Shown in pieces: positions 2,451-64,000 of a stretch of DNA of 64,000 nucleotides. The position numbers were made by a program, and so were the translations under genes. The stretch spans positions 224,001-288,000 of the forward strand of contig OZ241883.1 in the NCBI GenBank assembly GCA_965203445.1. Direction: 5' to 3'. Origin of the DNA: Candidatus Oxydemutator sp. GTDB taxonomy: Bacteria > Pseudomonadota > Gammaproteobacteria > Poriferisulfidales > Oxydemutatoraceae. Each line of letters begins with the position of its first letter. Within the stretch, counting starts at the first letter, position 1. A model generated the notes under the pieces. That model was not told the DNA's origin, ran no database searches, and was given only the letters and a program-made list of their open reading frames with translations.

Positions 2451-2550
2451 CGGCATAGAATAACGTATCGGCGGCAACGCCGGCGGCGACCCGGTCGAAG
2501 AAATCAGGCGGCGACGCCGACACCGACGAAAAAAGTGGGGAATTGTGTGA

Positions 2551-2578: not shown

Positions 2579-2745
2579 AGCGGCGGCTGCGCGTTTTGTC
2601 TTCAGCGCCGCGCCGGGGCGGGCGCGAGTTTCGTATTTATCGCTTGAAGTTGCTGATTTGGCAATGAAATATTCCCGACGAACGGTATCGTTTCAGCACG
2701 TGCAGCGGCGCCCCCACCGGAAAGGGGCACGGCCGAACTACCCGC

Positions 2746-18183: not shown

Positions 18184-18293
18184 TTTCTCCAGCAAAACAC
18201 AGTCGGGCCTTCTTTGCGACCACCCCCGTCGCTGTGCCACCATATGGAACGCCCTCGGCAAGGACAAACACGAATGATCGGGGGAAGTAAAGG

Positions 18294-18389
18294 GGGCGCA
18301 GTATACCCCTTTCCGGCCCCCGCTGCAAACGCGCAAGATGATGCAGGAAAGAGACACGTATTTGGGCGCAGTATACCCCTTTCCGGCCC
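18294..18389 (-). promoter_or_regulatory. Duplicated 26-bp element containing a TATACT -10-like box upstream of the adhesin
   Basis: GGGCGCAGTATACCCCTTTCCGGCCC occurs exactly at 18294-18319 and 18364-18389; the minus strand reads ...AAAGGGG-TATACT-GCGCCC. Confidence 0.6.
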
Positions 18390-18420
18390 TATACAGGGAA
18401 CGTCATTTCGTCGGAAAAAG

Positions 18421-18470
18421 TCGTTCGTCGGCCATATGCTACCGTTGGTCCGATGATTCATGCTATGCTC
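18421..18470 (+). promoter_or_regulatory. Conserved upstream motif, copy A (TTCGTCGGCCA...)
   Basis: TCGTTCGTCGGCCATATGCTACCGTTGGTC; the motif begins 96 nt before the ATG at 18520, with TATGCT 40 nt after the motif start. Confidence 0.65.
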
Positions 18471-18519
18471 CGGGAGGCGCGTTACAACGCCCCTCTTTCA
18501 ACCGGAAGGAGGAGCGGAA

Positions 18520-19041
18520 ATGCCCCACACAACAAGCGTGATAGACAGTGTCCATACCCTGGAGCGCACCGACATGAGCCGGAAGCAGGCCGAGGCCCTG
18601 ATACAACTGCTGCGCGATTCGATTGCCGAGGCCGTCCAGCATCTGGCGACCAAGGCCGAAGTCGAAGCGCAACTCCTGGCGATCAGGGCCGAATTCGACG
18701 CGCAATTTCTGGCGATCAAGGCCGAATTGGCCGAGCTCAGGCAGCACATGGCGACCCATATGGCGACCAAGGCCGAACTGGCCGCACTGGAGGCACAGGT
18801 CATGGAAATCAAGGCCGAGTTGGTCGAACTCAGGCAGAATATGGTGACCAGGTCCGAACTGGCCGCACTGGAGGCGCGGGTCATGGCCCATACCGACGCG
18901 CAGATAGCGCTTCTCAGAGGTGAGATCAACGAGAAGATGGCCACGAACCTGAAATATACAGTGCTTACCATAGGCTTTTCGACGGTCGCCATTATCGTGG
19001 CCATTTTCACGGCGCTTTTTGCCATGCCCACCGGCATCTGA
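18520..19041 (+). CDS. Coiled-coil protein with C-terminal membrane anchor (DUF1640/CCDC90-like), copy A
   Basis: SD GGAGG precedes the ATG. SRKQAEAL...LATKAEV and repeated ATKAELAALEA segments; hydrophobic C-terminus (TVLTIGFSTVAIIVAIFTALF). Confidence 0.8.
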   Translation: MPHTTSVIDSVHTLERTDMSRKQAEALIQLLRDSIAEAVQHLATKAEVEAQLLAIRAEFDAQFLAIKAELAELRQHMATHMATKAELAALEAQVMEIKAELVELRQNMVTRSELAALEARVMAHTDAQIALLRGEINEKMATNLKYTVLTIGFSTVAIIVAIFTALFAMPTGI

Positions 19042-19048
19042 AGACAAA

Positions 19049-19215
19049 GGATAGCCGCAGCCCACAAACCCTCCCTCTCCGGGAGAGGATAGCCGCAGCC
19101 CACAAACCAAACCCTCTCCCCCTAGGAGAGGGTGGCCAAGGAAGACTGGCCGAAGGCCGGGTGAGGGTGCCAGGTTCTGCAACAACCTTCAACAACCCTC
19201 TCCCAGAGGGAGAAG
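19049..19215. repeat. Cluster of CCCTCTCCC-N-GGGAGAGG hairpins with a 22-bp direct repeat
   Basis: GGATAGCCGCAGCCCACAAACC occurs twice (19049, 19087), with three CTCTCC...GGAGA palindromes. Confidence 0.75.
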
Positions 19216-19549
19216 TCCTTGGTCGGGAACGCCGTGGGGGCATTCCCTTACTGATGTATAAGGCCGGCAAGGTCAACGGGGCGCCCCGCCGCCCCGGGGC
19301 GTGCCCCGCCCAGGCGCGCTGGGACCCCCGTCACCAGGCCAGATCTGAGAAAACCGCCCCCATACTGCCGCCTGCGCCGGCAATAATAGCGACGACGGCC
19401 ACAAACACCTTCGTCCGCCCAGTCCGGCGATCATGGACGCGAACCAGAGTACAGCGACGAATCCCCGAAAGCCGCTCAGCACGGGGGGGGGGCGATGGAG
19501 ACCGGGGGGTCGGTTATAATTTGGGACTCCCGCCCCACCCCGAAAATTG

Positions 19550-20506
19550 ATGTCGGTATATACCAATATCTCCGGCGCCGAACTGGAGCGTTTCCTCGAA
19601 CGCTATCGGTGCGGCGCGCTGGTCTCGTTCGAGGGCATAGGCGAAGGCATTGAGAACACGAATTATTTCGTGGAGGCCCGGTGCGGCTCCTACGTGCTGA
19701 CGTTATTCGAGTGGCTCGCGTACGACGAGCTGCCCTACTTTCTCGAACTGATGGCGCACGTCGCCGACGCCGGCCTGCCGTGCCCGCATCCGGTGGCCGA
19801 CGCGCGCGGCGAGTATCTGCAACGGCTGAAGAACAAGCCGGCGGCGCTGATCACGCGCCTGCGCGGGCGCACGGTCGCCGCCGCCGGCACCGCGCACTGC
19901 GAGCAGGTGGGCGGCGCGCTGGCGCGCCTGCACGCGGCGGCGCGCACCTTCCGCCGGCGGCGCCCCGACGGCCGGGACCTGGACTGGTTCCACGAACAGC
20001 AGCGGCGGCTCGCGCCGGTTCTGGACGCCGACGACCGGGCGTTGCTGCACTCGGAGATCGAGCACCAGGCGCGCGCGGCGCGCGCGTGGCCGACGCTGCC
20101 GGGCGGCACGATCCACGCCGATCTGTTCCGCGACAACGTGCTGTTCGACGGCGCCCGCCTGAGCGGGCTGATTGACTTTTATTACGCGTGCGAGGGGCAC
20201 CTGCTGTACGACGTCGCGGTCGCCGTCAACGACTGGTGCCGGCGCGACGACGGCGGTGTTTCGCGCGGACGCTACGCGGCGCTGATCCGGGGCTACCACG
20301 AACGCCGCGCGCTGACGCCGGCCGAGGCGCGCGCGTGGCCCGACGTGCTGCGCCGCGCCGCGCTGCGCTTCTGGCTGTCGCGGCTGCGCGACCGCGCGCA
20401 GCCGCGCGCCGGCGCGATCACCCACGTCAAGAACCCCGACGTGTTCAAGAGCATCCTGCTCGACTGCCGCGCCGGGGCGCCGCCGCTGGCGACGACGCGA
20501 GGATGA
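19550..20506 (+). CDS. thrB: Homoserine kinase, type II (APH-like fold)
   Basis: MSVYT...GIENTNYF...YVLTLFE, IHADLFRDNVLF, LIDFYYAC, AALRFWLSRL. Confidence 0.95.
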   Translation: MSVYTNISGAELERFLERYRCGALVSFEGIGEGIENTNYFVEARCGSYVLTLFEWLAYDELPYFLELMAHVADAGLPCPHPVADARGEYLQRLKNKPAALITRLRGRTVAAAGTAHCEQVGGALARLHAAARTFRRRRPDGRDLDWFHEQQRRLAPVLDADDRALLHSEIEHQARAARAWPTLPGGTIHADLFRDNVLFDGARLSGLIDFYYACEGHLLYDVAVAVNDWCRRDDGGVSRGRYAALIRGYHERRALTPAEARAWPDVLRRAALRFWLSRLRDRAQPRAGAITHVKNPDVFKSILLDCRAGAPPLATTRG

Positions 20507-20967
20507 ACGTGCGCATCGGTCGCGCCGTGGCGTGGCTGGTTCCGGTCATGGCCGCGGTCGCGTTCGCGGTCGTCGTGCTGCGCTACGGTTTTCAATACGG
20601 GCGCGTGGATTTGCAGGAGAGCATCACCTATCTGCACGCCGCCGTGATCGCGCTGTGCATGGGCTACACGCTGGCGCGCGACGCGCACGTGCGCGTCGAC
20701 GTTCTCTACAACCGGATGACGCCGCGCGCGCGCCTTGTAGTCAACGTTGCGGGCGACGCGCTGCTGCTGCTGCCGACCGCGGCCGCGATTCTCTACCATA
20801 GCTGGGACTACGTGATAATCTCGTGGAAGGTGCTCGAGAGATCGCCGGAAATATCCGGGCTGCCGGGCGTGTTTTTGCTGAAGACGCTGATCCCGCTGAT
20901 GGCGGCGGCGTTGGTCGCGCAGGCGCTCGCGCGCATCCGGAGCGGATGGCGCGAGCTGCGTCGGTAG
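20503..20967 (+). CDS. TRAP transporter small permease (DctQ)
   Basis: Four hydrophobic segments; GYTLARDAHVRVDVLY and GLPGVFLLKTLI motifs; ATGA overlap with thrB. Confidence 0.9.
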   Translation: MNVRIGRAVAWLVPVMAAVAFAVVVLRYGFQYGRVDLQESITYLHAAVIALCMGYTLARDAHVRVDVLYNRMTPRARLVVNVAGDALLLLPTAAAILYHSWDYVIISWKVLERSPEISGLPGVFLLKTLIPLMAAALVAQALARIRSGWRELRR

Positions 20968-20971
20968 GGCG

Positions 20972-22354
20972 ATGGCGCTGCTGCTGTTTGCGGCGGTGAT
21001 CATCGCCGTCATGGCCGGCTACCCGGTCGCGTTCACGCTGGCCGGCGTGGCCCTGGCGTTCGCGCTGCTCGGCACGCTGACGGGCGCGTTCGAACCGAGC
21101 CTGCTGCACGCGATCCCGAGCCGCATCTTCGGCATTCTCACCAACGAGACGCTGATCGCGGTGCCGGTGTTCGTGTTCATGGGCACGGTGCTGCAAAAAA
21201 GCCGCCTCGCCGACGATCTGCTGCTGGCCGGCGCCGACCTGATGAAACGCGCCGCCGGCGGACTCGGCGTGTCGGTGGTGCTCATCGGCGCCCTGCTGGC
21301 GGCTAGCACCGGCATCGTCGGCGCGACGGTGACGACGATGGGGCTGCTGTCGCTGCCGGCGATGCTCAAGCGCGGCTACCATCCGGCCGTCGCGTGCGGC
21401 ACCGTCTGCGCGGCCGGCACGTTGGGGCAGATCATCCCGCCTTCGATCGTGCTGGTGCTGTTGGGCGACGTCATCTCCTCGGCCTACCAGCAGGCGCAAC
21501 TGAAACAGGGCGTGTTCGCGCCCGATGCGGTATCGGTCGCCGACCTGTTCGCCGGCGCCGTCGTGCCCGGCGTGCTGTTGGTCGCGTTGTACTCGGCCTA
21601 CCTGCTGATAACCGCGCTGTGCAAACCCGAATGGATGCCGCCGCCGACGCGCGCGCCGCGCACGTCACAATGGGGCAAACGCGCGCGCGCCGAATGGGTG
21701 CGCCTTGCCAAGGCGCTGCTGCCGACGCTGGCGCTGATTTTCGTGGTGCTCGGTTCGATCCTGAGCGGCGCGGCGACGCCGACCGAGGCGGCCTCGGTCG
21801 GCGCCGCCGGCGCGCTGTCGCTGGCCGTCGCCAAGGGCGGCTTTTCGATGGGGCAACTGGCCGAGTCGGCGCGCGCGACCGCGAGGATCACGTGCATGGT
21901 GTTCATGATCCTGATCGGGGCGACGCTGTTCTCGCTGGTGTTTCGCGGCTTCGGCGGCGACGACGCCGTGCACGAGCTGCTGGGCGGCCTCGCCGGCGGC
22001 TTCGTGACGACGATGATCGTCGTCATGCTGCTGATGTTCGTGCTCGGCTTCGTGCTCGACTTCATCGAGATCACGTTCGTCGTCGTGCCGATAATCGGCC
22101 CGGTGCTGCTGGCGATGGGCGCCGACCCGGTGTGGCTGGGCGTCATGATCGCGGTCAACCTGCAAACGTCGTTCTTGACGCCGCCGTTCGGGTTTTCGCT
22201 GTTCTATCTGCGCGGGGTCGCGCCGCGCGCGCTACAGACGCGGCACATCTATAAGGGGGTGGCGCCGTTCATCGGCCTGCAACTGCTGGCGCTGCTGGCG
22301 CTCGCGCTGTGGCCGCAGGCGGCGACGTGGCTACCGTCGGTGCTGCTGCGCTGA
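20972..22354 (+). CDS. TRAP transporter large permease (DctM)
   Basis: GYPVAFTLAG, GTLGQIIPPSIVL, ATPTEAASVGA, NLQTSFLTPPFGFSLFYLRG. Confidence 0.95.
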   Translation: MALLLFAAVIIAVMAGYPVAFTLAGVALAFALLGTLTGAFEPSLLHAIPSRIFGILTNETLIAVPVFVFMGTVLQKSRLADDLLLAGADLMKRAAGGLGVSVVLIGALLAASTGIVGATVTTMGLLSLPAMLKRGYHPAVACGTVCAAGTLGQIIPPSIVLVLLGDVISSAYQQAQLKQGVFAPDAVSVADLFAGAVVPGVLLVALYSAYLLITALCKPEWMPPPTRAPRTSQWGKRARAEWVRLAKALLPTLALIFVVLGSILSGAATPTEAASVGAAGALSLAVAKGGFSMGQLAESARATARITCMVFMILIGATLFSLVFRGFGGDDAVHELLGGLAGGFVTTMIVVMLLMFVLGFVLDFIEITFVVVPIIGPVLLAMGADPVWLGVMIAVNLQTSFLTPPFGFSLFYLRGVAPRALQTRHIYKGVAPFIGLQLLALLALALWPQAATWLPSVLLR

Positions 22355-22452
22355 CGCGGCGACGCGCTTCCCGCGCGCGCACCGACCGAGAGCAGAGACC
22401 GGCACGGCGAGGACGTGGGCCAGCGCGCTTCCCGCGCGCGGACTGGCCCCGC

Positions 22453-23562
22453 TCATTGACGCCGGACGTCGAAATACGCCTCCTCCGAGATCCGGTTCCA
22501 GCCGCCGACGCCCGCCAGAAACTCGCGGTAGGAAGCATAGGTGCGCCGCGCCAGATCGTTGGCGCCCGCGACCTCCTCGACCACCTCGGCGGACAACTCG
22601 CGGAAACGCGCGAGCACGTCGGCGGGAAACGCGCGCAGGTGCACGCCGTGCTCGTCGCGCAGCACCCGCAACGCGCCGAAATTGCGCGCCGTGTAATCTG
22701 CCAGCATGTCCTGGTTGGCGGCCTCGCAGGCGCGGCGCACGACCGCGCGCAAGTCCGGCGGCAACTGGTCGAACGCGGCGCGGTTGACGAAGCACTCTAT
22801 CGTCGTGCCCGGCTCGTGCCATCCGGGGTAGTAGTAGTACCTGGCGACCTTGTGCAAGCCGAACGCCAGGTCGTTGTACGGGTTGGTCCATTCGGTCGCG
22901 TCTATGGCCCCGGTCTGCATGGCCGTGAACAACTCGCCGCCCGGCAGCGCCACGGCGACGCCGCCGGCGCGCTCCAACACTTTGCCGCCGAGACCCGGGA
23001 TGCGCATCTTGAGCCCCCTGAGGTCGGCGACGCCGTTGATCTCGCGGTTGAACCACCCGCCCATCTGCATGCCCGAATTGCCGGCCGGCAACGGCATCAG
23101 ACCGAACGGCGCGTACGCCTCCCGCCACAGTTCGAGGCCGCCGCCCTTGTAGAGCCACGCGTTCATCTCCAGCGCGTTCATGCCGAAAGGCACGGTCGAG
23201 AAGAAATTGAACGCCGGGTCTTTCCCCTGCCAGTAATAGGCGCTGGCGTGCCCCATCTGCGCGACGCCGCCACGCACCGCGTCGAACGCCTCGAACGCCG
23301 GCACCAGTTCGCCGGCGCCATAGACCTTGACTTCCATCCTGCCGCCCGAGGTGCGCGAGATCAGCCGCGCCAGGTGCTCGGCGCCGGTGCCGAGACCGGG
23401 AAAATTCTTCGGCCACGCCGTGACCATCTTCCAACGGACGGTCTCGGGCGCGGGCGCGACCACGGCCGTGTCTGGTTGCCGCTGCTCGCGCTCGCAGCCG
23501 GCAAGCGGCGCGCCGAGCAACGCGCCGGCGGCGGCGCGGTGAAGGAATTGTCGTCGTTTCAC
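22453..23562 (-). CDS. TRAP substrate-binding protein (DctP, TakP-like), Tat-exported
   Basis: MKRRQFL Tat signal; WKMVTAWPKNFPGLG, DLRGLKMRIPGLGG, YYYYPGWHEPG. Confidence 0.93.
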   Translation of the reverse strand: MKRRQFLHRAAAGALLGAPLAGCEREQRQPDTAVVAPAPETVRWKMVTAWPKNFPGLGTGAEHLARLISRTSGGRMEVKVYGAGELVPAFEAFDAVRGGVAQMGHASAYYWQGKDPAFNFFSTVPFGMNALEMNAWLYKGGGLELWREAYAPFGLMPLPAGNSGMQMGGWFNREINGVADLRGLKMRIPGLGGKVLERAGGVAVALPGGELFTAMQTGAIDATEWTNPYNDLAFGLHKVARYYYYPGWHEPGTTIECFVNRAAFDQLPPDLRAVVRRACEAANQDMLADYTARNFGALRVLRDEHGVHLRAFPADVLARFRELSAEVVEEVAGANDLARRTYASYREFLAGVGGWNRISEEAYFDVRRQ

Positions 23563-23597
23563 GGGGTGCTCCTATGGGGAGAAACTACCGGTGATTA

Positions 23598-24391
23598 TAT
23601 AGGGAATTATGTATCAAAATCTACAGAATGATTGTGAAGTAATTGAATTCGCATAGGAATATGACATGATGTCTGGTGATGAAAGTTCATAGGACAATTC
23701 GATAATGTATCGTATGCCGAATACGGCAAGGCATGAGCGGCGCGTCAAGCATTATCAGAGGATGATGGCGAGGCGTCAGGGGCCGAACCGCAAGAAGGGG
23801 ATCAAGGCGTCGAACCGATGGCTACGCGCACGGTTGCTTCACCAAAGAGCGCAGGCCACGTTGCGCCATGCCAGACGGAATTGGTGTCATGGCGTATCGA
23901 GGGAAGTGGCCGACGGGTATTCTCTGGTTCATTTGGAGAAGTGGAACAATCGGGGCATGACAAGAAGCGCCCAGGGCACGAAGGAAAATCCTGGAACGAA
24001 AGTCCGTGCGAAGGCCGGACTGAACCGAGCGATCCTGGCGTCATGCTGGGGCAAGTTTCACCAGTGTCTGGATTATAAGACGAATACGAACTACGTAGAT
24101 CCTGCATATACGAGTCAGACGTGCAACAAGTGCAGGCACGTGGACAAAAAGAATCGGAAGACGCAGTCGGTATTTATTTGTACCGATTGCGGTTATCGGG
24201 ATAATGCGGATGCGAATGCCGCATTGAACATATTGGCCTCCGGGAATGGGGCTGCTGGGCGTGATAAAACCAGAGGGGAGACTCATCCGGTGGAACGTCA
24301 AACGGGTATCAACAACCTACAGAATCTGGAGCACGACCGGCACAACGGTTCCCGCGCCAAGTCTGTAGATTTTGATACATAATTCCCTATA
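23598..24391. mobile_element. Non-autonomous element bounded by perfect 30-bp inverted repeats, carrying a deleted tnpB
   Basis: TATAGGGAATTATGTATCAAAATCTACAGA (23598-23627) is the exact reverse complement of 24362-24391. The interior is AT-richer and has no transposase. GGNNATTAT ends resemble the IS1595-family ISNwi1 group. Confidence 0.85.
23679..24382 (+). pseudogene. tnpB: Internally deleted TnpB (IS200/IS605 RNA-guided nuclease), C-terminal half
   Basis: ORF 23705..24382 has LVHLEKWN (RuvC-II E), AKAGLNRAILASCWG, a TSQTCNKC...CTDCG Zn ribbon and NADANAALNI (RuvC-III). The N-terminal domains and RuvC-I are missing. A short MKVHRTIR* stub lies just upstream. Confidence 0.85.
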
Positions 24392-24464
24392 ATAAGCTCC
24401 ATGCGTCCCGTCGGACACACGACCTGAGAAAGAGTCAATGACCATCGAGCCACCGTCGCTTTCG

Positions 24465-24512
24465 TCATTCGTCGGCCAAATGCTACCTTTGGTCGGCGCG
24501 CGGGCCATGCCT
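24465..24512 (+). promoter_or_regulatory. Conserved upstream motif, copy B
   Basis: TCATTCGTCGGCCAAATGCTACCTTTGGTC; the motif starts 98 nt before the ATG at 24566. Confidence 0.65.
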
Positions 24513-24565
24513 GATCGAAGCGCACGTATAACCCGGTTTTCTGCAACGATTAACCGGAGAATACA

Positions 24566-25270
24566 ATGACGGAAAAACACAACGAAGCAGTGCGGGAAGC
24601 CTTGCCGCAAGAGATCGAATGGGGGGCACCCATTACGCGAGGCGAGCACAAACGGAGCTCGGACGAACTTGAAAAGAAGTTCGTCGGGCTGCATGGCGAG
24701 CTCAGGGGAGACATAAAGGACCTGCGCGTCGAACTCATCGCGAGCATCGCCAGACTCGACAAAGACATCGTCAACTTGCGCGCCGAACTCAAACAGGACA
24801 GCGCCAACTTGCGCGCCAAACTCAAAGAGGAATTCGGCGAGCAACACGCCAAACTCAAAGAGGATTCCGATAAGCGATACGCCGAACTCATGGCGCACAT
24901 CGCCAGACTCGACAAGGACATAGTCCGCTTGCGCGCCGAACTCATAGAGGAAATCGGCAAGCAACTCGCCAAACTCAAAGAGGATTCCGATAAGCGATAC
25001 GCCGAACTCAAAGAGGATTCCGATAAGCGATACGCCGAACTCAAAGAGGATTCCGATAAGCGATACGCCGAACTCATGGCGCACATCGCCAGACTCGACA
25101 AGGACATCGTCCACTTGCGCGCCGAACTCATGGAGGAAATCGGCAAGCGCCACGACGAACTCAAAGACTATATCGCCAAATCCCAAATCAGGATGCTTCT
25201 GGCCACCACCGCTATCTTTGCCGGCGTAGCCGGCAGCATGTTGGCCAGTATATTGGCCATAGTTCGCTGA
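24566..25270 (+). CDS. Repeat-expanded coiled-coil protein with C-terminal membrane anchor, copy B
   Basis: GGAG SD; N-terminal WGAPITRG; 11-aa repeats (ELKEDSDKRYA) and IARLDKDIVxLRAEL three times; hydrophobic C-terminus. Confidence 0.8.
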   Translation: MTEKHNEAVREALPQEIEWGAPITRGEHKRSSDELEKKFVGLHGELRGDIKDLRVELIASIARLDKDIVNLRAELKQDSANLRAKLKEEFGEQHAKLKEDSDKRYAELMAHIARLDKDIVRLRAELIEEIGKQLAKLKEDSDKRYAELKEDSDKRYAELKEDSDKRYAELMAHIARLDKDIVHLRAELMEEIGKRHDELKDYIAKSQIRMLLATTAIFAGVAGSMLASILAIVR

Positions 25271-25285
25271 CGGATAGGCGTCCGC

Positions 25286-27487
25286 TCAGACGACTTTCAG
25301 GTCGGCGAGCATCAGTATCAGCCACTTGGTGCCGGCGCGCTCGAACTTGACCTGGGCGCGGGCGTGGTCGCCGGCGCCTTCGCAGGCGATGACGACGCCC
25401 GTGCCGAAAGTCTTGTGCTCGACCGACTGGCCGGGGCGGATACCCGACGCGCGCGCCGGCGCGGCGCCACGGGTGCGCGGCGGGCGCGTGACGTGCAGGC
25501 GCGGGCGCACTTCCTCGATCAGTTCCCTCGGGATTTCGCCGAGAAAGCGCGAGGGTTCGTTGATCGTGGTCGCGCCGTAGCCGCGGTTGCGGGTCTCGGC
25601 GAAGGACATCGCCAACTCCTCCCTGGCGCGCGTGATGCCGACGTAGCACAGGCGGCGCTCCTCCTCGAGGTCGGTCTCGTTTGCCGATGCGCGCTCGTGT
25701 GGAAACAGGCCCTCCTCAAGCCCGACGATGACGACCGACGGAAACTCCAGGCCCTTGGCCGAATGCAGCGTCATCAGCTGCACGCAGTCCTGATCGGCGC
25801 GGCCCTGTCCCTCGCCCGCCTCGAGCGCGGCGTGCGCGAGGAACGCATCCACGACGGCCAGCTCCTCGTCACCTTCGTCGCGCCACGCGCGCTCGTAGTC
25901 GCGCGCAGCAGCCGTGAACTCCTCGAGGTTCTCGACGCTGGACAACGCCGCCTCGCTCTTGTCCTTGCGGTAATGCGCGGTCAGCAGCTCGGCGACGCGC
26001 GCGGCCATCTCCGGCAGCGACGGGGGCGCGCCATCGCCAGCCAGGTTTTCCAGCAAATCGTAAAAACCGCGCAGTGCGTTGGCGGCGCGCGCCGCGAGTT
26101 CCTTGCCCTTGAGCAGTTCGATCCCGGCGTCCCACAGGCTGCATTTGCGCGCACCCGCACACGCGCGGATTTCGCCGAGCGTGCGCTCACCGATGCCGCG
26201 CGGCGGGAAGTTGACGACGCGCTCGAACGACGGATCGTCGCGCCGGTTCATCATCAGGCGCAGGTAGGCGAGCGCGTTCTTGACCACGGCGCGCTCGAAG
26301 AAACGCAGACCGCCGTAGATGCGGTACGGAAGGTCCTCGGCGATCAGCGCGCTTTCGATGACGCGCGACTGCGCGTTGGAACGGTAGAGCACCGCGATCT
26401 CATCGTAGCGCCGCTCGCGCCCGGCCCAGGCGCGGACGCGGTCGACGACGAAGGCCGCCTCCTCGCGCTCGTTGAACGCGGCGAACACGACAATCGAGGC
26501 GCCGGCGTCGCCGTCGGTCCACAGCGACTTGCCCAGGCGCCCGCGGTTGTGATCAATCAGCGCGTTGGCGGCGTCGAGTATGGTCGCGGTCGAGCGGTAA
26601 TTGCGCTCCAGGCGAAAGGTGGCGGCGCGCGGAAAATCCTTGACGAAGTTGCGGACGTTTTCGACGCGCGCGCCGCGCCAGCCGTAGATGGACTGGTCGT
26701 CGTCGCCGACCGCGAACACCGGAATCTCGTCGCCGGCGAGCACCCGGATCAGCGCGTACTGGAGCTTGTTGGTGTCCTGGAATTCATCCACCAGGAGGTG
26801 GCGAAAGCGCGCGCGGTAGTGGCGCAGCAGGTCGGCGTTGTCGCGCAGCAGTTCGAGCGCGCACAGCAGCAGTTCGGCGAAGTCCACCAGGCCCAGGCGC
26901 CGGCAGTCCCGCTCGTAGGCGGTGTAGACGCGCAGCAGTTGCACGAGGTTCGCGTCGTCACCGGGTTCCTGCACCGACGACGCGCGCATGCCCCTCTCCT
27001 TGCAGTCGTTGATGAACCACTGCGTCCGGCGCGCCGGCCAATGCGCCTCGTCCAGACCGAGCGCCTGCGTCACGCGCTTGATCAGGCGGCGCTGATCCTG
27101 CGCGTCGAGCACCTGGAAAGTGCGCGGCAGCCCGGCGTCGCCGTGGTGCAGGCGCAAAAAGCGGTGGCACAATCCGTGAAAGGTGCCGAGCCACATGCCC
27201 GAGACCGGATAATCGAGCAGGCTTTCGACGCGCGCGCGCATTTCCTGCGCCGCCTTGTTGGTGAAGGTCACCGCGACGATGCTGTACGGCGACAGGTTCT
27301 CGCTACGGCACAGCCACGCGATGCGGTGCGTCAGCACGCGCGTCTTGCCGCTGCCGGCACCGGCCAGCACCAGCACCGGCAGCGGGGCACTGGTGACCGC
27401 GACGCGCTGCTCGTCGTTCAGCCGCCGCAACAAGTCTTGCGCGTCGGACGCCCGCGCGTCGCCGAACCGCTCTTCGCCGATCAGCAT
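25286..27487 (-). CDS. uvrD: DNA helicase II
   Basis: LAGAGSGKTRVLTHRIAWL, VDEFQDTN, VGDDDQSIYGWRGA, MTLHSAKGLEF, EEERRLCYVGITRA. Confidence 0.96.
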   Translation of the reverse strand: MLIGEERFGDARASDAQDLLRRLNDEQRVAVTSAPLPVLVLAGAGSGKTRVLTHRIAWLCRSENLSPYSIVAVTFTNKAAQEMRARVESLLDYPVSGMWLGTFHGLCHRFLRLHHGDAGLPRTFQVLDAQDQRRLIKRVTQALGLDEAHWPARRTQWFINDCKERGMRASSVQEPGDDANLVQLLRVYTAYERDCRRLGLVDFAELLLCALELLRDNADLLRHYRARFRHLLVDEFQDTNKLQYALIRVLAGDEIPVFAVGDDDQSIYGWRGARVENVRNFVKDFPRAATFRLERNYRSTATILDAANALIDHNRGRLGKSLWTDGDAGASIVVFAAFNEREEAAFVVDRVRAWAGRERRYDEIAVLYRSNAQSRVIESALIAEDLPYRIYGGLRFFERAVVKNALAYLRLMMNRRDDPSFERVVNFPPRGIGERTLGEIRACAGARKCSLWDAGIELLKGKELAARAANALRGFYDLLENLAGDGAPPSLPEMAARVAELLTAHYRKDKSEAALSSVENLEEFTAAARDYERAWRDEGDEELAVVDAFLAHAALEAGEGQGRADQDCVQLMTLHSAKGLEFPSVVIVGLEEGLFPHERASANETDLEEERRLCYVGITRAREELAMSFAETRNRGYGATTINEPSRFLGEIPRELIEEVRPRLHVTRPPRTRGAAPARASGIRPGQSVEHKTFGTGVVIACEGAGDHARAQVKFERAGTKWLILMLADLKVV

Positions 27488-27513
27488 TCGCCGGCCCGCG
27501 CCTCGCGCGCCTC

Positions 27514-29070
27514 TCAGAAAAGCACCACGGCGACGACGATCAGCACGATGCCGACGGCGAGCACCGTCGTCAGACCGCGGCGCAACGCGCGCAGCTCGCG
27601 CTGGACGGTCTCGATTTGCGCGTCGCGGCGACGGGCGTCGAACGACGCCCGCCCGCGCCCCAGCGCCTCGAGCATCTCGGGCGCGCGCTCGGCCAAGACG
27701 GGCAGTTCGCGACGCAGTTTTTTGAGCAGCGCGCGCGGACTCCGGCGCTGCGCCATCCAGCGCTCCAGAAAAGGCTTGGCGGTGTCCCACAGGTTGAGGT
27801 CGGGATACAGCTGGCGTCCCAGCCCCTCGACGTTGAGCAGCGTCTTTTGCAGCAGCACCAGCTGCGGCTGCACCTCCATGTGAAACTGACGCGCCGTTTG
27901 AAACAGCCGCAGCAACAACGCGCCGAACGAAATGCGGCTGAGCGGTTGTTGAAAGATCGGTTCGCACACGGTGCGTATCGCCGACTCCAGCTCGTCTATG
28001 CGGGTGTCGGGCGGCACCCAGCCCGAGTCGACGTGCAGCTCGGCGACGCGGCGGTAGTCGTGGTTGAAGAAGGCCAGGAAATTCTCGGCCAGATAGCGCT
28101 GGTCCTCGACCGCGAGCGCGCCGACGATGCCGAAGTCGACGCCCAGATAGCGCGGCGCCTCGGGGTTCTCGACCGACACGAAGATGTTGCCGGGGTGCAT
28201 GTCGGCGTGGAAGAAGTTGTCGCGAAACACCTGGGTGAAAAAAATCTCGACGCCGATCGCGGCGAGCTGCCTCAGGTCAACGCCGGCGTCCTTCAGGCTT
28301 GCGACGTCGTTGACCGCAACGCCGTAAATCCGCTCCATGACCATGACGTCGCGGCGGCAGTATTCCCAGTGCACGCGCGGCACGTACATCAACGGCGAGT
28401 CCTCGAAGTTGCGGCGCAGCTGGCCGGCGTTGGCGGCCTCGCGCAACAGGTCGAGTTCGGCGAGTATCGTCTTCTCGTATTCCCCGACGACCTCGACGAC
28501 GCGCAGGCGCCGCCCCTCCGACCAGTAGCGCCGCGCCAACGCCGCCATCATCTTCAGTACGGCGACGTCGCGGCGGATCAGTTTTTCGACGTCGGGGCGC
28601 AACACCTTGACGACGACGTCCTCGCCGTCCGCAAGCGTCGCCGCGTGCACCTGCGCCACCGAAGCCGACGCCATCGGCGTCTCGTCGAAGGACGCGAACA
28701 AGTCGCCTATGCCCCTGCCGAGCGAGCGCTCGACGATGGCCGATGCCTGACGGCCCGGAAACGGCGGCACTTCGTCCTGGAGTTTCGCAAGTTCGGCGAT
28801 GACGTCGGCCGGCAGCAGATCGGGGCGCGTCGACAGCGTCTGCCCGAACTTGACGAAGATCGGCCCCAGATCCTCGAGCGCCAGGCGCAGGCGCACCGCC
28901 AGCGGGCGGCGCGCGGCGCGTCTTTTCCGGGACCAGTTCCACGGCAGCAGATAGAAGACGAAATGCACCGGGCGCAAAAAGTGAACCGCAAGGACGATCT
29001 CGTCCAAGCCGTGCCTGATCAACGTCCACTGGATGACGAACAGGCGGCCGATTATGGACAACGACCTCAC
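27514..29070 (-). CDS. ubiB: Ubiquinone biosynthesis kinase UbiB
   Basis: [41 protein letters not shown]. Confidence 0.96.
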
Positions 29071-29085
29071 GTCCCCACCGGTGCC

Positions 29086-29691
29086 TCAATCGGCGCGCAA
29101 TCGGAGCGCGCGCACCCGCGCCTCCAGCCGCTCGAGCGCGTCGCGCAACTCGTCCACGCCCTCGATGAACTCGCGCAACTCGCGCGCGTCGGGCGTCGCG
29201 CGCAGCTCCTCGCGCAGGTACTCGCCGCCGCTGTCGGCGAGCGAATCGAGCGAGCGCTCCAGCCAGGCGGCGGCGGCGCGCGCACCGCGCCCCAGCCCGT
29301 GCGCGCAGGCGTCGCCGAACCACGCCGCCGGCAGCTCCTCCCAGTCGAACTCGAGATCCCGGAATACTTTCTGAAACTCCTGGCCGAGCGCGACGTCGCC
29401 GCGGATCTCGGCGCGCGCCGCGGCACGCCGCGGCGCGCGCCCGGCGAAGGACAGCTTGAACAAATCCACGACGCCGCCACGCACCCAGGTATCCGGTTCG
29501 CGCTCGCATTCGGCGGCGACCGTCACCGAGTCCTCCCCGGGCAGAAAATAGAGCGTCCGTCCGAACGTGGTCACGCACACCGCGATGACCTTGCCGCGCA
29601 TCGCGCCGAGGCGGGCGGCGACCTCGGGGTCGGCTCGCAGCATGCGGTTGACGGCTTTGCCGACCAGCGCGGCGAGCGGTGAATCCTGCAT
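29086..29691 (-). CDS. ubiJ: Ubiquinone biosynthesis accessory factor UbiJ (SCP2 domain)
   Basis: Lies between ubiE and ubiB; FDWEE...GD and VDELRDALERLEARV motifs. Confidence 0.88.
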   Translation of the reverse strand: MQDSPLAALVGKAVNRMLRADPEVAARLGAMRGKVIAVCVTTFGRTLYFLPGEDSVTVAAECEREPDTWVRGGVVDLFKLSFAGRAPRRAAARAEIRGDVALGQEFQKVFRDLEFDWEELPAAWFGDACAHGLGRGARAAAAWLERSLDSLADSGGEYLREELRATPDARELREFIEGVDELRDALERLEARVRALRLRAD

Positions 29692-29699
29692 CGCGACCT

Positions 29700-30440
29700 T
29701 CAGAGCTTGAAAGCCCGGTGCACCGAGGCGATGCCGCCGGCCAGGTTGAAACAGCGGCAGTCCGCGAAACCGGCGCGCGTTATGCGCTCGCCCAACTCGC
29801 GCTGATCGGGATGCCTGCGGATGGACTCGACCAGGTAGCGGTAGCTACCCTCGTCGCCGGCGACGACGCGCCCGAGCAGCGGGATCACGCGGAACGAATA
29901 CCAGTCGTAGGCGGCGCGCAGCGCCGGCGACGGTCTCGAGAAATCGAGCACGACGAAGCGTCCGCCCGGTTTCAGCACGCGGTGCACCGAGGCCATCGCG
30001 GCGTCCTTGCGCGTGACGTTGCGCAGCCCGAAGGCCATCATCACGCAGTCGAAACGGTCGTCGGCGAACGGCAGATTCTCGGCGTCGCAGCGCACGCAGC
30101 CGGGCGCGGCGACGCCGGCGTCGAGCAGGCGCGCGCGCGCGCGCCGCAGCATCGCCCCGTTGACGTCGGCGACGACGAGTTCGCCGCGCTCGCCGAGACG
30201 TTTGCGCATCCTCAGGGCGACGTCGCCGGTGCCGCCGGCGAGGTCGAGAACGCGCTGTCCCGGGCGCACGCCCGCGACCGCCGCGGCGAAACGTTTCCAC
30301 GCCCGGTGCGCGCCGAACGACATCAGGTCGTTCATCAGATCGTAGCGGTGCGCGACCGAGTCGAACACGCCCGCGACCAGCCTGCCCTTCTCGGCGAGGC
30401 CGACCGTGCGGTAGCCGAAGTGCGTGGTTTTGCGTTCCAT
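29700..30440 (-). CDS. ubiE: Ubiquinone/menaquinone C-methyltransferase
   Basis: THFGY...VFDSVAHRYDLMNDLMSFG, VLDLAGGTGD, FGLRNVT, SYRYLVESIRRHP. Confidence 0.96.
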   Translation of the reverse strand: MERKTTHFGYRTVGLAEKGRLVAGVFDSVAHRYDLMNDLMSFGAHRAWKRFAAAVAGVRPGQRVLDLAGGTGDVALRMRKRLGERGELVVADVNGAMLRRARARLLDAGVAAPGCVRCDAENLPFADDRFDCVMMAFGLRNVTRKDAAMASVHRVLKPGGRFVVLDFSRPSPALRAAYDWYSFRVIPLLGRVVAGDEGSYRYLVESIRRHPDQRELGERITRAGFADCRCFNLAGGIASVHRAFKL

Positions 30441-30465
30441 CCCGAGGCGCGCGACGGCGCGGCGC

Positions 30466-30837
30466 TCAATTCAGCCGGTGTTCCTTGCGCCGGTGGCCGG
30501 CCTCGCGCAAGCGCTCGAGATAACGCCGCCAGCGCGCGTCGTGCTCGACGCCGAGCCGGTAGAGATAATCCCAGGTGTAGATGCCGCTGTCGTGGCCGTC
30601 GTCGAACGCAAGCTTCACCGCGTAATGGCCGACCGGCTCGACCGCGACGATCGCGACGTCCTCCTTGCCGACCTGCAACACCTCCTGCCCCGGCCCGTGC
30701 CCGGCGACCTCGGCCGACGGCGAATGGACGCGCAGGTATTCGCACGTCAGCTTGAAGTTGCGCCCGTCCTCGAAAGTCAGCTCGAGCACGCGCGACGCGC
30801 GGTGCAGGTGGATCTCCGACGGTTGCACGGTGCTCAT
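30466..30837 (-). CDS. DUF971 / gamma-butyrobetaine hydroxylase-like N-terminal domain protein
   Basis: EYLRVHSPSAEV.GHG, VGHYAVKLAFDDGHDSGIYTW; usual position between hslU and ubiE. Confidence 0.9.
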   Translation of the reverse strand: MSTVQPSEIHLHRASRVLELTFEDGRNFKLTCEYLRVHSPSAEVAGHGPGQEVLQVGKEDVAIVAVEPVGHYAVKLAFDDGHDSGIYTWDYLYRLGVEHDARWRRYLERLREAGHRRKEHRLN

Positions 30838-30850
30838 CGCGACGCTCCGA

Positions 30851-32167
30851 TCACAGTATGTAGCGGCTCAAATCGCGGTCGCGAGCGAGGTCCGCCAAGC
30901 GCCGGTTGACGTAGTCCACGTCCACCACCAGTTTGCCGCCGCTGTTGTCGGGGGCCGCGAACGAAGCCTCCTCGAGCAGGCGCTCCATCACCGTGTGCAG
31001 GCGGCGCGCGCCGATGTTCTCGGTGTGCTGGTTGATGTCGTAGGCGATGGCGGCAATCGTCTCCACGGCCTCGTCGGTGAACTCGATGGCCAGGTCCTCG
31101 GTGCCGAGCAACTCGCGGTACTGCCGGATCAGCGACACGTCCGGCTCGACCAGGATGCGCACGAACGCGGCGGCGTCCAGCGGCCCCAGCTCGACGCGGA
31201 TCGGCAGGCGCCCCTGCAATTCGGGTATCAGGTCGGACGGCTTCGAGAAATGGAACGCGCCCGAGGCGATGAACAACACGTGGTCGGTCTTGATCATGCC
31301 GTATTTGGTGCTGACGGTGCTGCCCTCTATCAACGGCAACAGGTCGCGCTGCACGCCCTCGCGCGAGACCTCGCCGCCGACGCCGTGGTCGCGCTTTGCG
31401 AGTTTGTCGAGCTCGTCCAGGAACACGATGCCCCGCTGCTCGACGTTTTCGACCGCGGCCGCTTGCAGCTCGTCGTCGTTGACCATTTTTTCGGCCTCTT
31501 CCTGGGCCAGGGCCTTCAGCGCGTTGGCGACGCTCATGCGCCGTTCCTGCTTGTGCTCGCCGCCGAGGCTCTTGAAGACCTTCTGGATCTGCTGCGAGAT
31601 GGCCTCGGCGCCGGGCGGCGACATGACCTCGACGTTGACCGACGTGGCGCCCACGTCTATCTTCAAGTCGGCGTCGTCGAGATCGCCCTCGCGCAGGCGC
31701 GCGCGCAACCGCTGGCGCGCGTCGTCGTCGTCGCGCCGACCATGGCGCGGATTCTGCTCCATCAGCGCGTCGAGCACCCGCTCCTCGGCCAAATCCTGGG
31801 CGCGGTGCGAATTCCTGCGGTTGGCGTGCTCGCGCGCGTCCTTGACCGCGACGTCGGCCAGGTCGCGGACGATGGACTCGACGTCGCGCCCGACGTAGCC
31901 GACCTCGGTGAACTTCGTCGCCTCGACCTTGATGAACGGCGCGTCGGCGAGGCGCGCCAGGCGCCTTGCGATCTCGGTCTTGCCGACGCCGGTCGGCCCC
32001 ATCATCAGGATGTTTTTCGGCGTGATCTCGTCGCGCAGATGCCGCTCCAGCTGCATCCTGCGCCAGCGATTGCGCAGCGCGATTGCGACCGCGCGCTTGG
32101 CGTCGTCCTGCCCGATGATGTGCTTGTCGAGCTCCTGCACGATTTCCCTGGGCGTCATGACCGACAC
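30851..32167 (-). CDS. hslU: ATP-dependent protease ATPase subunit HslU
   Basis: [58 protein letters not shown]. Confidence 0.97.
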
Positions 32168-32206
32168 GATGCTCTCCTAGATGATCTCGTTTGTTTTTGG
32201 ACGCGG

Positions 32207-32740
32207 CTACAGCCGTTCGACGACCAGTTCGCCGTTGGTGTAGATGCAGATGTCGGCGGCTATCAGCAGCGACTCGCGCACCACGGCTTCGGCGTCGAGC
32301 GTCGAATGCCGCAGCAGCGCGTGCGCCGCGGCGCGCGCGTAATTACCGCCCGAACCTATCGCAATCAGATTGTCTTCCGGTTCGATGACGTCGCCGGTGC
32401 CGGAGACTATCAGCGACGACGCCTCGTCGGCGACCGCAAGCAACGCCTCCAGGCGGCGCAGGCTGCGGTCGGTACGCCAGTCCTTCGCCAACTCGACCGC
32501 GGCGCGCATCAACTGCCCGCCGTACTCCTGCAACTTGTTCTCGAAGCGCTCGAACAGCGTAAAAGCATCGGCGGTGCCGCCGGCAAAGCCGGCCAGCACG
32601 CGGTCGCCGTACAGCCGTCGCACCTTGCGCGCGTTGCGTTTGACCACCGTGTCCCCCATCGAGACCTGGCCGTCGCCACCCATGACGACGCAACCGTCGC
32701 CGCGCACCGACAAAACCGTAGTACCGTGGAAGGTCTCCAT
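32207..32740 (-). CDS. hslV: ATP-dependent protease peptidase subunit HslV
   Basis: GTTVLSVR...[29 protein letters not shown]. Confidence 0.97.
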
Positions 32741-32776
32741 CGAGGGGATTATATACGCAGCGCAAAAATCCCCGTG

Positions 32777-33388
32777 TCAGATCGGCAGGTTCGAAACGTA
32801 GGCCGCGGCGGCGACGACGGTGCCGATGAAGGCAATCAGCGTCATCACGTTCCACCGGATTATCCGCGACTCCAGGTCGGATATTCTCCGGTCGAGACGC
32901 AGCTCCACGCCCATGATCTGTCTTTCGAGATCGGCGCGCAGGGCCACCCCGTCGGCGCGCACCTCGGAACGCAGCACGCCCATCTCGGAACGCAGCGCGT
33001 CCATCTCGGAATGCAACACGCCCATCTCGGAACGCAGCGCGTCCATCTCGGAATGCAACACGCCCATCTCGGAACGCAGCGCGTCCATCTCGGAACGCAG
33101 CACGTCCATCTCGGAACGCAGCGCGTCCATCTCGGAACGCAACACGCCCATCTCGGAACGCAGCGCGTCCATCTCGGAATGCAACACGCCCATCTCGGAA
33201 CGCAGCGCGTCCATTTCGGAACGCAGCGCGTCCATCTCGGAATGAAGCGAAGCCAGGTCACCGTGAACGGCGGTCATGGCGTTTTCAAACCGGCCGCGTG
33301 TGACCGGTTCGTTCCAGTTCACCGAGGACGCCTCCAGTTGCCCCGTTTGCGGGTTTGTCGGTGTTTCTTTTGTCATTGTTTTTCGCAT
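32777..33388 (-). CDS. Heptad-repeat coiled-coil protein with C-terminal membrane anchor, copy C
   Basis: AAGGAG SD before ATG 33388; WNEPVTRG motif; 13 tandem L[RH]SEM[DG][AV] heptads; IIRWNVMTLIAFIGTVVAAAAYV C-terminus. Confidence 0.8.
   Translation of the reverse strand: MRKTMTKETPTNPQTGQLEASSVNWNEPVTRGRFENAMTAVHGDLASLHSEMDALRSEMDALRSEMGVLHSEMDALRSEMGVLRSEMDALRSEMDVLRSEMDALRSEMGVLHSEMDALRSEMGVLHSEMDALRSEMGVLRSEVRADGVALRADLERQIMGVELRLDRRISDLESRIIRWNVMTLIAFIGTVVAAAAYVSNLPI
32962..33246 (-). repeat. 21-bp tandem repeat (about 13.5 units) encoding the heptads
   Basis: CCATCTCGGAA(C/T)GCA(G/A)C(G/A)CG(T/C) recurs head-to-tail without spacers. Confidence 0.95.
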
Positions 33389-33444
33389 TGCGGTTCTCCT
33401 TGTTGCTCGCGCAAAAAAGAAAACCACTGTGCCGTCGGCAAAGG

Positions 33445-33493
33445 GCAGCATAACCACAACCGGAACAAAAGGCACGCTTTGGCCGACGAACGG
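33445..33493 (-). promoter_or_regulatory. Conserved upstream motif, copy C
   Basis: Minus strand CCGTTCGTCGGCCAAAGCGTGCCTTTTGTTC...TATGCT; the motif starts 102 nt before the ATG at 33388. Confidence 0.6.
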
Positions 33494-33557
33494 TAAAAAG
33501 CCAGTCGGCAAAGGGCCGACCGGCGCGCACAAAGAAACGGGCCGGCCGCCGTCCACG

Positions 33558-60547: not shown

Positions 60548-60624
60548 TGGTAGGCGCGGCTGGACTCGAACCAGCGACCCCCACCATGTGAAGATGGTGC
60601 TCTAACCGACTGAGCTACGCGCCC
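60548..60624 (-). tRNA. tRNA-Val (anticodon CAC)
   Basis: GGGCGCGTAGCTCAGTCGGTTAGAGCA-CCATC-TTCACAT-GGTGG-GGGTCGCTGGTTCGAGTCCAGCCGCGCCTACCA: cloverleaf with TTCGA loop and encoded CCA. Confidence 0.96.
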
Positions 60625-63484: not shown

Positions 63485-63677
63485 ATTCCATGGGTGGTCG
63501 TTCGTCGGCTATTTTATACCGCCTATCGCAAAACGCGACGCCAAGCGCCGATACCGGCGTATGTTTTGCCCGCCCCGAAAGAGGCAAAGTTTCAGCCGTG
63601 AAATCAGGTACAATGCATACATTACGCCCAAACGTGGCAACGTGTTCCACGCACTTTCCGCCATGAGGCCGTCGCTG

Positions 63678-64000
63678 ATGAAATCAGAGCGCACCTATCG
63701 CAACAAAGTTTTTTATCAATCGGCGGAAAGGATGGCCGAATTGCCGGATGGCGTCGTGCAGCTGGCGGTGACCTCCCCACCGTACTTCAATATCAAGGAT
63801 TATTCGCAAAACGGCTACCAGGATAGTCGGCACTCCGCACCGGAAGGGGATGACATCGGCGGAATCAACGATTACAAAGCGTATCTTGAGCACCTGCTGT
63901 GCGTGTGGAAAGAGTGTGAGCGCGTGCTCAAACCAAACGGCAAATTGTGCGTGAACGTGCCTCTGATGCCGATGCTGAAAAACGACGTAGCGACCCACTA
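63678..64000 (+). CDS. DNA N4-cytosine/N6-adenine methyltransferase (partial, runs off the window)
   Basis: Manual translation MKSERTYRNKVFYQSAERMAELPDGVVQLAVTSPPYFNIKDY...ECERVLKPNGKLCVNV, with the catalytic SPPY motif first (beta class). Confidence 0.88.
   Translation, partial: MKSERTYRNKVFYQSAERMAELPDGVVQLAVTSPPYFNIKDYSQNGYQDSRHSAPEGDDIGGINDYKAYLEHLLCVWKECERVLKPNGKLCVNVPLMPMLKNDVATH

Follow-up and report, generated by a model that had tools for sequence, protein, structure and literature searches.

In a 64,000-nucleotide stretch of the genome of Candidatus Oxydemutator sp. (assembly GCA_965203445.1, contig OZ241883.1, positions 224,001 to 288,000; hereafter the window), three unlinked genes, here termed A, B and C, encode coiled-coil proteins with a transmembrane helix and carry the same short motif upstream of their start codons. 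Comparison of this shared leader within the source genome (a single contig of 2,378,814 bp with 63.6% G+C) and across its relatives led us to the view that it is very probably the upstream half of an activator-dependent promoter and belongs to an AlgZR-type regulon. This predicted regulon would unite 14 DUF1640-like tail-anchored coiled-coil paralogues with genes for type IV pili, DNA uptake and recombination, i.e. pilA-pilC, a pilin-like gene of 321 codons, two pilus/secretin operons, comEA, comM, recA and a periplasmic ATP-dependent ligase. In the proposed mechanism, the repeats that make up the motif would be bound by the only LytTR response regulator of the genome, a putative AlgR orthologue. 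Phosphorylation by the adjacent AlgZ/FimS-type kinase would yield a dimer at about −71 and −50 that recruits RNA polymerase, and transcription would begin about 71 nt downstream of the first motif nucleotide and leave an untranslated region of 25–35 nt holding the ribosome-binding site only. Such a fixed start position, together with a short untranslated region, would account for the near-constant distance between motif and ATG among otherwise unrelated genes.

Anatomy of the shared upstream motif

The 11-mer TTCGTCGGCCA is present in three exact copies in the window, at 18424(+), 24468(+) and 33490..33480(-), and starts 96, 98 and 102 nt before the ATG codons of genes A (18520), B (24566) and C (33388), respectively. 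Alignments gave a pairwise identity of 24–26% among the three genes, and thus the dispersed family of coiled-coil transmembrane genes with a common motif and low identity, as described in a first-pass annotation of the window, was recovered. Allowing up to two mismatches, 83 matches to TTCGTCGGCCA were counted in the window as compared to 35.0 ± 5.9 in shuffled sequences; the complete genome holds 19 exact copies, about 11 of which share a longer context. Alignment of this context resolved two 9-bp direct repeats with a 12-bp spacer and hence a 21-bp period, the distal 9-mer reading (T/C)C(A/G)TTCGTC followed by GGC, and the proximal one CC(G/T)TT(T/G/C)GTC. The repeat consensus is CCGTTCGTC, usually with GG next to it, and the spacer measures 12 bp at the three window genes and 12 or 13 bp across the full site set. 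A-type genes possess a third copy of the 9-mer 8 bp further upstream, which in the A-type paralogues is often an exact CCGTTCGTC (Table 1).

In the available text of a review (PMC4064291) and a chromatin immunoprecipitation sequencing study (PMC4787818), CCGTTCGTC is given as the consensus of the Pseudomonas aeruginosa AlgR box, and CCGTTTGTC (algD RB3), CCGTTGGTC (mucR) and CCGTTCATC (rhlI, czcR) are given as footprinted variants. All four 9-mers are found among the sites of this genome, with CCGTTCGTC as the exact distal box of C, CCGTTGGTC as the proximal box of A, and CCGTTTGTC and CCGTTCATC elsewhere. Judged by its sequence, the box itself is the already described AlgR box of Pseudomonas. 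The paired arrangement is that of LytTR regulators, which recognize direct repeats with a critical 12-bp spacing, while AlgR sites in Pseudomonas are, in the part of the review at hand, usually arranged otherwise (PMC4064291).

Table 1. Promoter elements, genes and neighboring features of the window, numbered from its first nucleotide.
Feature	Position	Strand	Remarks
Gene A, extra upstream box CATTTCGTC	18404..18412	+	8 nt upstream of the distal box
Gene A, distal AlgR-type box TCGTTCGTC	18421..18429	+	includes the start of TTCGTCGGCCA at 18424
Gene A, proximal box CCGTTGGTC	18442..18450	+	spaced 12 bp from the distal box; same sequence as the footprinted AlgR site of mucR (PMC4787818, available text)
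Gene A, YATGCY box TGCTATGCT	18461..18469	+	extended −10-like
Gene A, −10-like TACAAC	18483..18488	+	+59 from motif start
Gene A	18520..19041	+	173 amino acids, DUF1640/CCDC90-like: head, [LM]ATKAE beta-layer motifs, coiled coil, C-terminal transmembrane helix
TnpB remnant (IS605 OrfB/Cas12f-like)	element 23603..24386, TnpB 23705-24382	+	flanked by inverted ends of 28 nt
Gene B, distal box TCATTCGTC	24465..24473	+	
Gene B, proximal box CCTTTGGTC	24486..24494	+	
Gene B, −10-like TATAAC	24527..24532	+	at +59
Gene B	24566..25270	+	234 amino acids; W..PITRG head, 11-residue repeats, C-terminal transmembrane helix
Gene C, distal box CCGTTCGTC	33485..33493	-	exact AlgR consensus
Gene C, proximal box CCTTTTGTT	33464..33472	-	
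Gene C, CACAGT at +59	33426..33431	-	weak −10-like; A at position 2, T at position 6
Gene C	32777..33388	-	203 amino acids; W..PVTRG head, 13.7 heptad repeats, C-terminal transmembrane helix
Weak tandem site TCGTTCGTC, 12 nt, CCGCCTATC	63498..63527	+	profile E 0.023
Single exact CCGTTCGTC	2677..2685	-	between the end of the 5203-residue gene and polA

Comparison of 48 distinct sites, drawn from the genome under study and from related ones, revealed a positionally conserved feature downstream of the boxes that is common to unrelated genes. A TA dinucleotide starts between +58 and +61 nt from the motif start in 39 of the 48 sites and exactly at +59 in 23, as compared to at most 17 of 48 sites for other 7-nt windows. 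This places a −10-like TAnnnN element 59 ± 1 nt after the TTCGTC of the first repeat and 32–34 nt after the second block, with TATTTT, TATGTT, TATAAC, TACAAC, TACCCT and TACTCG among the elements found. No −35 element was recognizable among the compared sites, and no sigma-70 −35/−10 pair was called on the + strand before gene A; two 9-bp repeats, a 12-bp spacer and the lack of a good −35 element are the features of a LytTR-type promoter. The distance from motif to ATG is about 95–105 nt (93–112 nt for the 14 boxed DUF1640-like genes), and transcription of gene A would start near 18495. Of the functions proposed earlier for the leader, that of a promoter site is the one upheld, with tandem boxes for a transcription factor whose distance to a −10-like element is fixed. 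The YATGCY box, which had been regarded as part of the common leader, is limited to the A-type and C-type paralogues and B, where it may represent a second promoter (TGCTATGCT in A); as a general feature it is replaced by the TA at +59.

Two other interpretations of the conserved blocks were weighed. They could constitute −35 and −10 elements recognized by an alternative sigma factor, e.g. of the extracytoplasmic function (ECF) type, or the target of some other, unrelated protein that binds DNA. The orientation of the motif and its distance to the genes are fixed, and CGTC is frequent in ECF −10 elements. Nevertheless, an alternative sigma factor appears unlikely, since the two blocks are direct-repeat copies of each other instead of two different elements and a separate −10-like element lies 32–34 nt past the second block. 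In addition, the boxes are confined to the family that has the LytTR regulator, and the half-site is identical to AlgR sites reported as proven in the available text of both sources (PMC4064291, PMC4787818).

Alternatively, the motif could be part of a transcribed 5′ leader with a regulatory RNA fold, such as a riboswitch, an attenuator or a small-RNA target. Single leaders do fold somewhat better than their shuffles (z = −2.3, −1.8 and −2.9), and GUCGGC can pair with itself through G-U, which gives rise to the apparent hairpin. However, when pairing was evaluated over the 48 sites, the counts did not exceed those of shifted controls (281 of 480 cells versus 283 at a shift of +1) and several pairs were mostly non-canonical. 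Moreover, the −10-like element lies downstream of the motif, and Rfam contained no family in the region, with a tRNA at 60551-60624 as the sole match in the window. An RNA element is hence regarded as extremely improbable. An antisense promoter, also suggested earlier on the basis of GGTAGCAT, was rejected, as this sequence sits in the 12-bp spacer and is conserved only in A and B.

Predicted regulon and candidate regulator

For a genome-wide scan, a 42-nt profile was built from 11 copies and rebuilt for a second round, using a threshold of E ≤ 0.05 and the reversed genome as control. The first profile retrieved 11 further sites at E < 0.05, none of which were in its training set, and the second-round profile yielded 26 sites in the genome versus 0 in the reversed one. 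As automated gene calls over-extend starts, coding or intergenic status was assigned by inspection of open reading frames (ORFs), according to which 25 of the 26 sites are intergenic with a same-strand ORF start about 60–205 nt downstream. DUF1640-like paralogues follow 14 of the 26 sites, and the boxes cover 14 of 16 coiled-coil paralogues in total; the two paralogues lacking them, at 169.7 kb and 925.8 kb of the genome, have a different head.

Another eight sites precede pilus, DNA-uptake or recombination genes, namely recA, pilA followed by pilC, the N-methyl pilin-like gene (321 amino acids), an ORF of 177 amino acids followed by a secretin gene, a PilN-domain gene (504 amino acids) that is the first of an operon also encoding a secretin and a T2SSE ATPase, comM, comEA and the gene of an ATP-dependent ligase that bears a signal peptide (PRK09125, 358 bits). 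The domains of these targets were assigned with Pfam and NCBIfam as RecA, Pilin, T2SSF, Secretin, PilN, ComM (Mg_chelatase), ComEA (HHH_3) and ligase PRK09125. The remaining four sites lie before a DNA methylase gene (window position 63498), a lipoprotein gene (120 amino acids) and a gene for a membrane protein of 73 amino acids, and inside ispD. Two boxes 66 nt apart were detected at comEC, which is probably a further member. The occurrence of the same boxes before pilus, DNA-uptake and recombination genes led to the conclusion that the motif marks a regulon. What was initially taken for an undescribed regulon can thus be kept as a regulon, given boxes on 14 of 16 paralogues and on pilus and uptake genes and their conservation in other genera, but not as undescribed with respect to the box. 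Likewise, the assertion that all copies lie beside accessory genes does not hold, as the motif also precedes pilA, comEA, comM and recA.

The two partial copies noted earlier in the window proved to be real. The weak tandem site before the methylase gene is followed by TATGTT at +59 (63560-63565) and, 177 nt downstream, by the ATG of the N6/N4 DNA methylase gene at 63678. The copy read at 2685..2677 is a single CCGTTCGTC with no partner box at 21 bp; another TTCGTCGG is located at 2523-2530 (-), about 70 nt before the polA ATG. The boxed membrane protein of 73 amino acids has a paralogue with a profile E of 0.15, and the paralogous 73–75-residue membrane proteins without known family at C1:2177992(-) and 371843(-) each have a box pair and TACAAG at +59. 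A C-type paralogue with a box pair at C1:1128639-1130410 lies about 1.2 kb after a secretin match of 729 amino acids, with a T2SSE ATPase match 5 kb further on; the paralogue has no C-terminal helix and may therefore be truncated.

The candidate regulator is the one and only LytTR protein encoded in the genome and comprises 258 amino acids with REC and LytTR domains. Its gene has a PF06580 histidine kinase gene upstream and hemC and hemD downstream, which corresponds to the algZ-algR-hemC-hemD arrangement; algZR and hemCD are cotranscribed in P. aeruginosa PAO1 according to the available text of PMC5790918. The protein shares 75% identity with the regulator of one metagenome-assembled genome and about 42% with those of Sedimenticola and Thiolapillus, and a search against solved structures gave matches to the receiver domain only. 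Taking domain content and gene order together, the regulator can with good probability be named an AlgR orthologue, and we infer that the boxes are its binding sites. TfoX (TfoX_N) was not found in the genome, which is 100% complete. The algZ-like kinase gene itself contains a weak single box at C1:1588639(-) (CCGTTCATC context, E 5.8), reminiscent of the internal algR promoter of Pseudomonas.

Conservation across relatives and insertion of genes A, B and C

The distribution of regulator and boxes was compared between the family (19 genomes) and three sister families (22 genomes); as related genomes are non-independent, the counts below describe a pattern and are not a statistical test. A LytTR match was obtained once in each of the 19 family genomes and in none of the 22 outsiders. 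A strict tandem pattern was counted 23 times in this genome, 95 times in the rest of the family (18 genomes) and 4 times in the 22 outsiders together. Per genome, this amounts to 14, 11 and 25 in the own genus, 0–9 in genus g3 and 0–3 in genera g2, g4, g5 and g6, with 0–2 for the pattern read backwards. Upstream of orthologues of the other target genes, a tandem site was found at 16 of 20 comEA loci (g1 4/4, g3 6/6, g4 5/5, g2 1/1, g5 0/3, g6 0/1), 11 of 18 comM loci, 7 of 19 recA loci and 4 of 6 ligE loci. DUF1640-like loci carry it in 8 of 14 cases in other genomes of the family and in 0 of 13 in a sister family, and elsewhere in the class none of 25 DUF1640 loci from 15 genomes had a tandem box.

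Several observations weigh against an AlgR-controlled promoter. The best NCBIfam match of the regulator is BtsR with 133 bits, which is below the cut-off of 246 bits, and NCBIfam contains no AlgR model, so that the proposed orthology is argued from gene order, domain content and the motif. Pseudomonas AlgR sites are mostly single, not 12-bp-spaced pairs, as far as the available text of PMC4064291 describes them. The −10 elements are weak, and C-type promoters lack TA at the respective position. In A-type promoters, the extended −10 element TGCTATGCT begins only 10 bp past the proximal box (13 bp to its TATGCT hexamer), and were this element the actual promoter, there would be an overlap of the boxes with the −35 region, as would suit repression. 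Furthermore, dprA has no box, comEA is boxless in g5 and g6 despite the presence of the regulator, and the phyletic pattern may reflect a single evolutionary event owing to the non-independence of the genomes.

With respect to genomic context, the thrB-dctQMP-uvrD-ubiB-ubiJ-ubiE-orf-hslU-hslV-xerC block is syntenic in genomes of three genera. Comparison of filled and empty sites, as suggested in the first-pass annotation, revealed that A (together with a cadherin-like gene of 5203 codons), B (together with a TnpB remnant) and likewise C are all absent from the syntenic positions in relatives, where polA and thrB, dctP and uvrD, and xerC and hslV are adjacent. We thus concluded that A, B and C are lineage-specific insertions. 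The xerC gene beside gene C is syntenic in the relatives. The TnpB element stops 79 nt before the distal box of B, and its end sequence occurs seven times in the genome.

These insertions raise the possibility that A, B and C are single-gene mobile cassettes with the conserved sequence as an attC-like recombination site. In addition to their absence at the same positions between syntenic flanks, gene B adjoins the TnpB remnant, and nucleotide similarity among paralogues extends from 8–59 nt before the motif to the stop codon, which indicates that the spreading unit is promoter plus ORF. However, the tandem site is found at one end of this unit only, and types A, B and C have the boxes alone in common, with no other shared termini beyond the promoter. 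The repeats are direct and do not form the imperfect inverted-repeat hairpin of an integron cassette site, and the pairing count given above for RNA, no better than in shifted controls, applies here as well. Since the boxes also stand before core, vertically inherited genes (comEA, comM and recA, at conserved positions in several genera), they would represent a regulatory site that was carried along rather than a recombination site, and a cassette site is considered very unlikely. The earlier idea of mobile cassettes accordingly survives for the insertion of the genes into a syntenic block, not for the motif.

The gene of 5203 codons inserted together with gene A (2746-18357, -) encodes repeated Cadherin-like beta-sandwich domains (PF12733) and is located between polA and thrB, which are adjacent in a genome of the same genus (G001). 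It probably starts at about 18183 (MFTVV...), in divergent orientation to gene A, and the AlgR-type boxes thereby fall within a 336-nt intergenic region common to both.

The coiled-coil proteins and related systems

Genes A, B and C are each built from tandem units (33/42 nt in A, 33 nt in B and 13.7 copies of 21 nt in C) and end in a hydrophobic helix 1–7 residues from the C-terminus. Pairwise alignment confirmed W..P[IV]TRG and HG[ED]L as common to B and C, as had been observed before. Against the PF07798 gathering cut-off of 33.5 bits, A scored 30.9, B 17.1 and C 44.8 bits, the match of C lying within the coiled coil; gene A is flagged as PF07798 in a precomputed table, and A-type paralogues reached 41.6–48.3 bits. 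A-type proteins contain one to three [LM]ATK[AD]E motifs each, with none in B-type and C-type proteins. According to the available text of Hartmann et al. (PMC4786415), this is the beta-layer motif of trimeric alpha/beta coiled coils, seen in DUF1640 membrane proteins. A-type proteins can be assigned to the DUF1640/CCDC90-like group, as they possess a membrane anchor and show [aliphatic]-A-T-K-[polar]-[DE] where the stalk begins. A first scan for named relatives of gene A found none. B-type and C-type proteins have a W..PVTRG head, which is rare, and only two homologues of gene B were retrieved among 5.8 billion proteins. In an alignment of 20 homologues, the head and the membrane-proximal part were conserved and stalk length varied by whole repeat units. 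A C-terminal transmembrane helix is present in 13 of 14 boxed paralogues; as a signal peptide is missing and the anchor is C-terminal, most of the protein is expected on the cytoplasmic side. An origin in defense systems or phages was rejected: PADLOC returned no match for A, and those for B and C were of the coiled-coil type only, the best being LeoC with 33 bits.

Among known systems, AlgZ(FimS)/AlgR of P. aeruginosa, as far as described in the available sources, agrees with the predicted regulon in the 9-bp consensus with its tolerated variants, in the LytTR regulator beside a PF06580 kinase followed by hemC-hemD, and in type IV pilus control, where the Pseudomonas targets are the minor pilin genes fimU-pilVWXY1E. 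In contrast, the boxes described here form 12-bp-spaced pairs at a fixed distance to the −10 element, whereas those of Pseudomonas are mostly single at very variable distances, and the host is an uncultured gammaproteobacterium. The targets also differ in that they include pilA, comEA, comM, recA, the periplasmic ligase and 14 DUF1640-like genes, none of which a literature search found named as AlgR targets. The pairing is the canonical 12-bp LytTR arrangement, noted as missing for AlgR in the Pseudomonas literature to the extent available. The Gram-positive LytTR regulators AgrA, ComE and PlnC likewise use 9-bp direct repeats with a 12-bp spacer at activator-dependent promoters (PMC4064291, available text). 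Unlike the system described here, they have their own repeat sequence, peptide-pheromone sensor kinases and no hemCD linkage. ComE is the early competence regulator of streptococci.

Strong overlap in targets was noted with the TfoX/Sxy-CRP (CRP-S) regulons of Vibrionaceae, Pasteurellaceae and Enterobacteriaceae, which comprise pilins, a secretin operon, comEA, comM and a periplasmic ATP-dependent ligase but depend on a different motif and regulator. These results suggest that an AlgR-type LytTR system, which controls alginate and minor pilins in Pseudomonas, governs DNA uptake in a lineage without TfoX. A repeat that had lacked an explanation thereby becomes a regulon that can be tested and for which a candidate regulator is named. 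The A-type proteins resemble DUF1640/CCDC90-like proteins (PF07798; MCUR1, CCDC90B, yeast Fmp32) in head, beta-layer motif and membrane anchor, whereas the presence of 16 paralogues in a 2.4-Mb genome, stalks that vary by gain and loss of repeats, and the different, rare heads of the B-type and C-type set the present proteins apart. The predicted regulon would tie these membrane stalks, relatives of mitochondrial MCUR1, to a pilus and DNA-uptake programme, and this link is the sole clue to the function of types A, B and C. More speculatively, AlgZR might serve as the master switch of natural competence in this family, in the place of TfoX-CRP in Vibrio and Haemophilus, with the DUF1640 stalks as a structural part of the pilus/uptake programme; if true, this tentative scenario would provide the first functional context for bacterial MCUR1-like proteins.

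Further repeats were observed around genes A and C. Upstream of the gene A boxes, a 21-nt direct repeat AGTATACCCCTTTCCGGCCC(C) is present at 18300-18320 and 18370-18390, and these are its sole two copies in the genome. A palindrome ACCCTCTCCCCCTAGGAGAGGGTGG (19111-19135), 70 nt past the stop codon of gene A, has about 50 genome copies with up to four mismatches; it resembles repetitive extragenic palindromic elements and was called terminator-like. The box pair of gene C is flanked on both sides by the 12-mer CCCTTTGCCGAC (33503-33514 and 33435-33446, -), the reverse complement of which is similar to a partial box (CGTCGGC), and the first copy belongs to a hairpin that precedes a T-run, directly after xerC.

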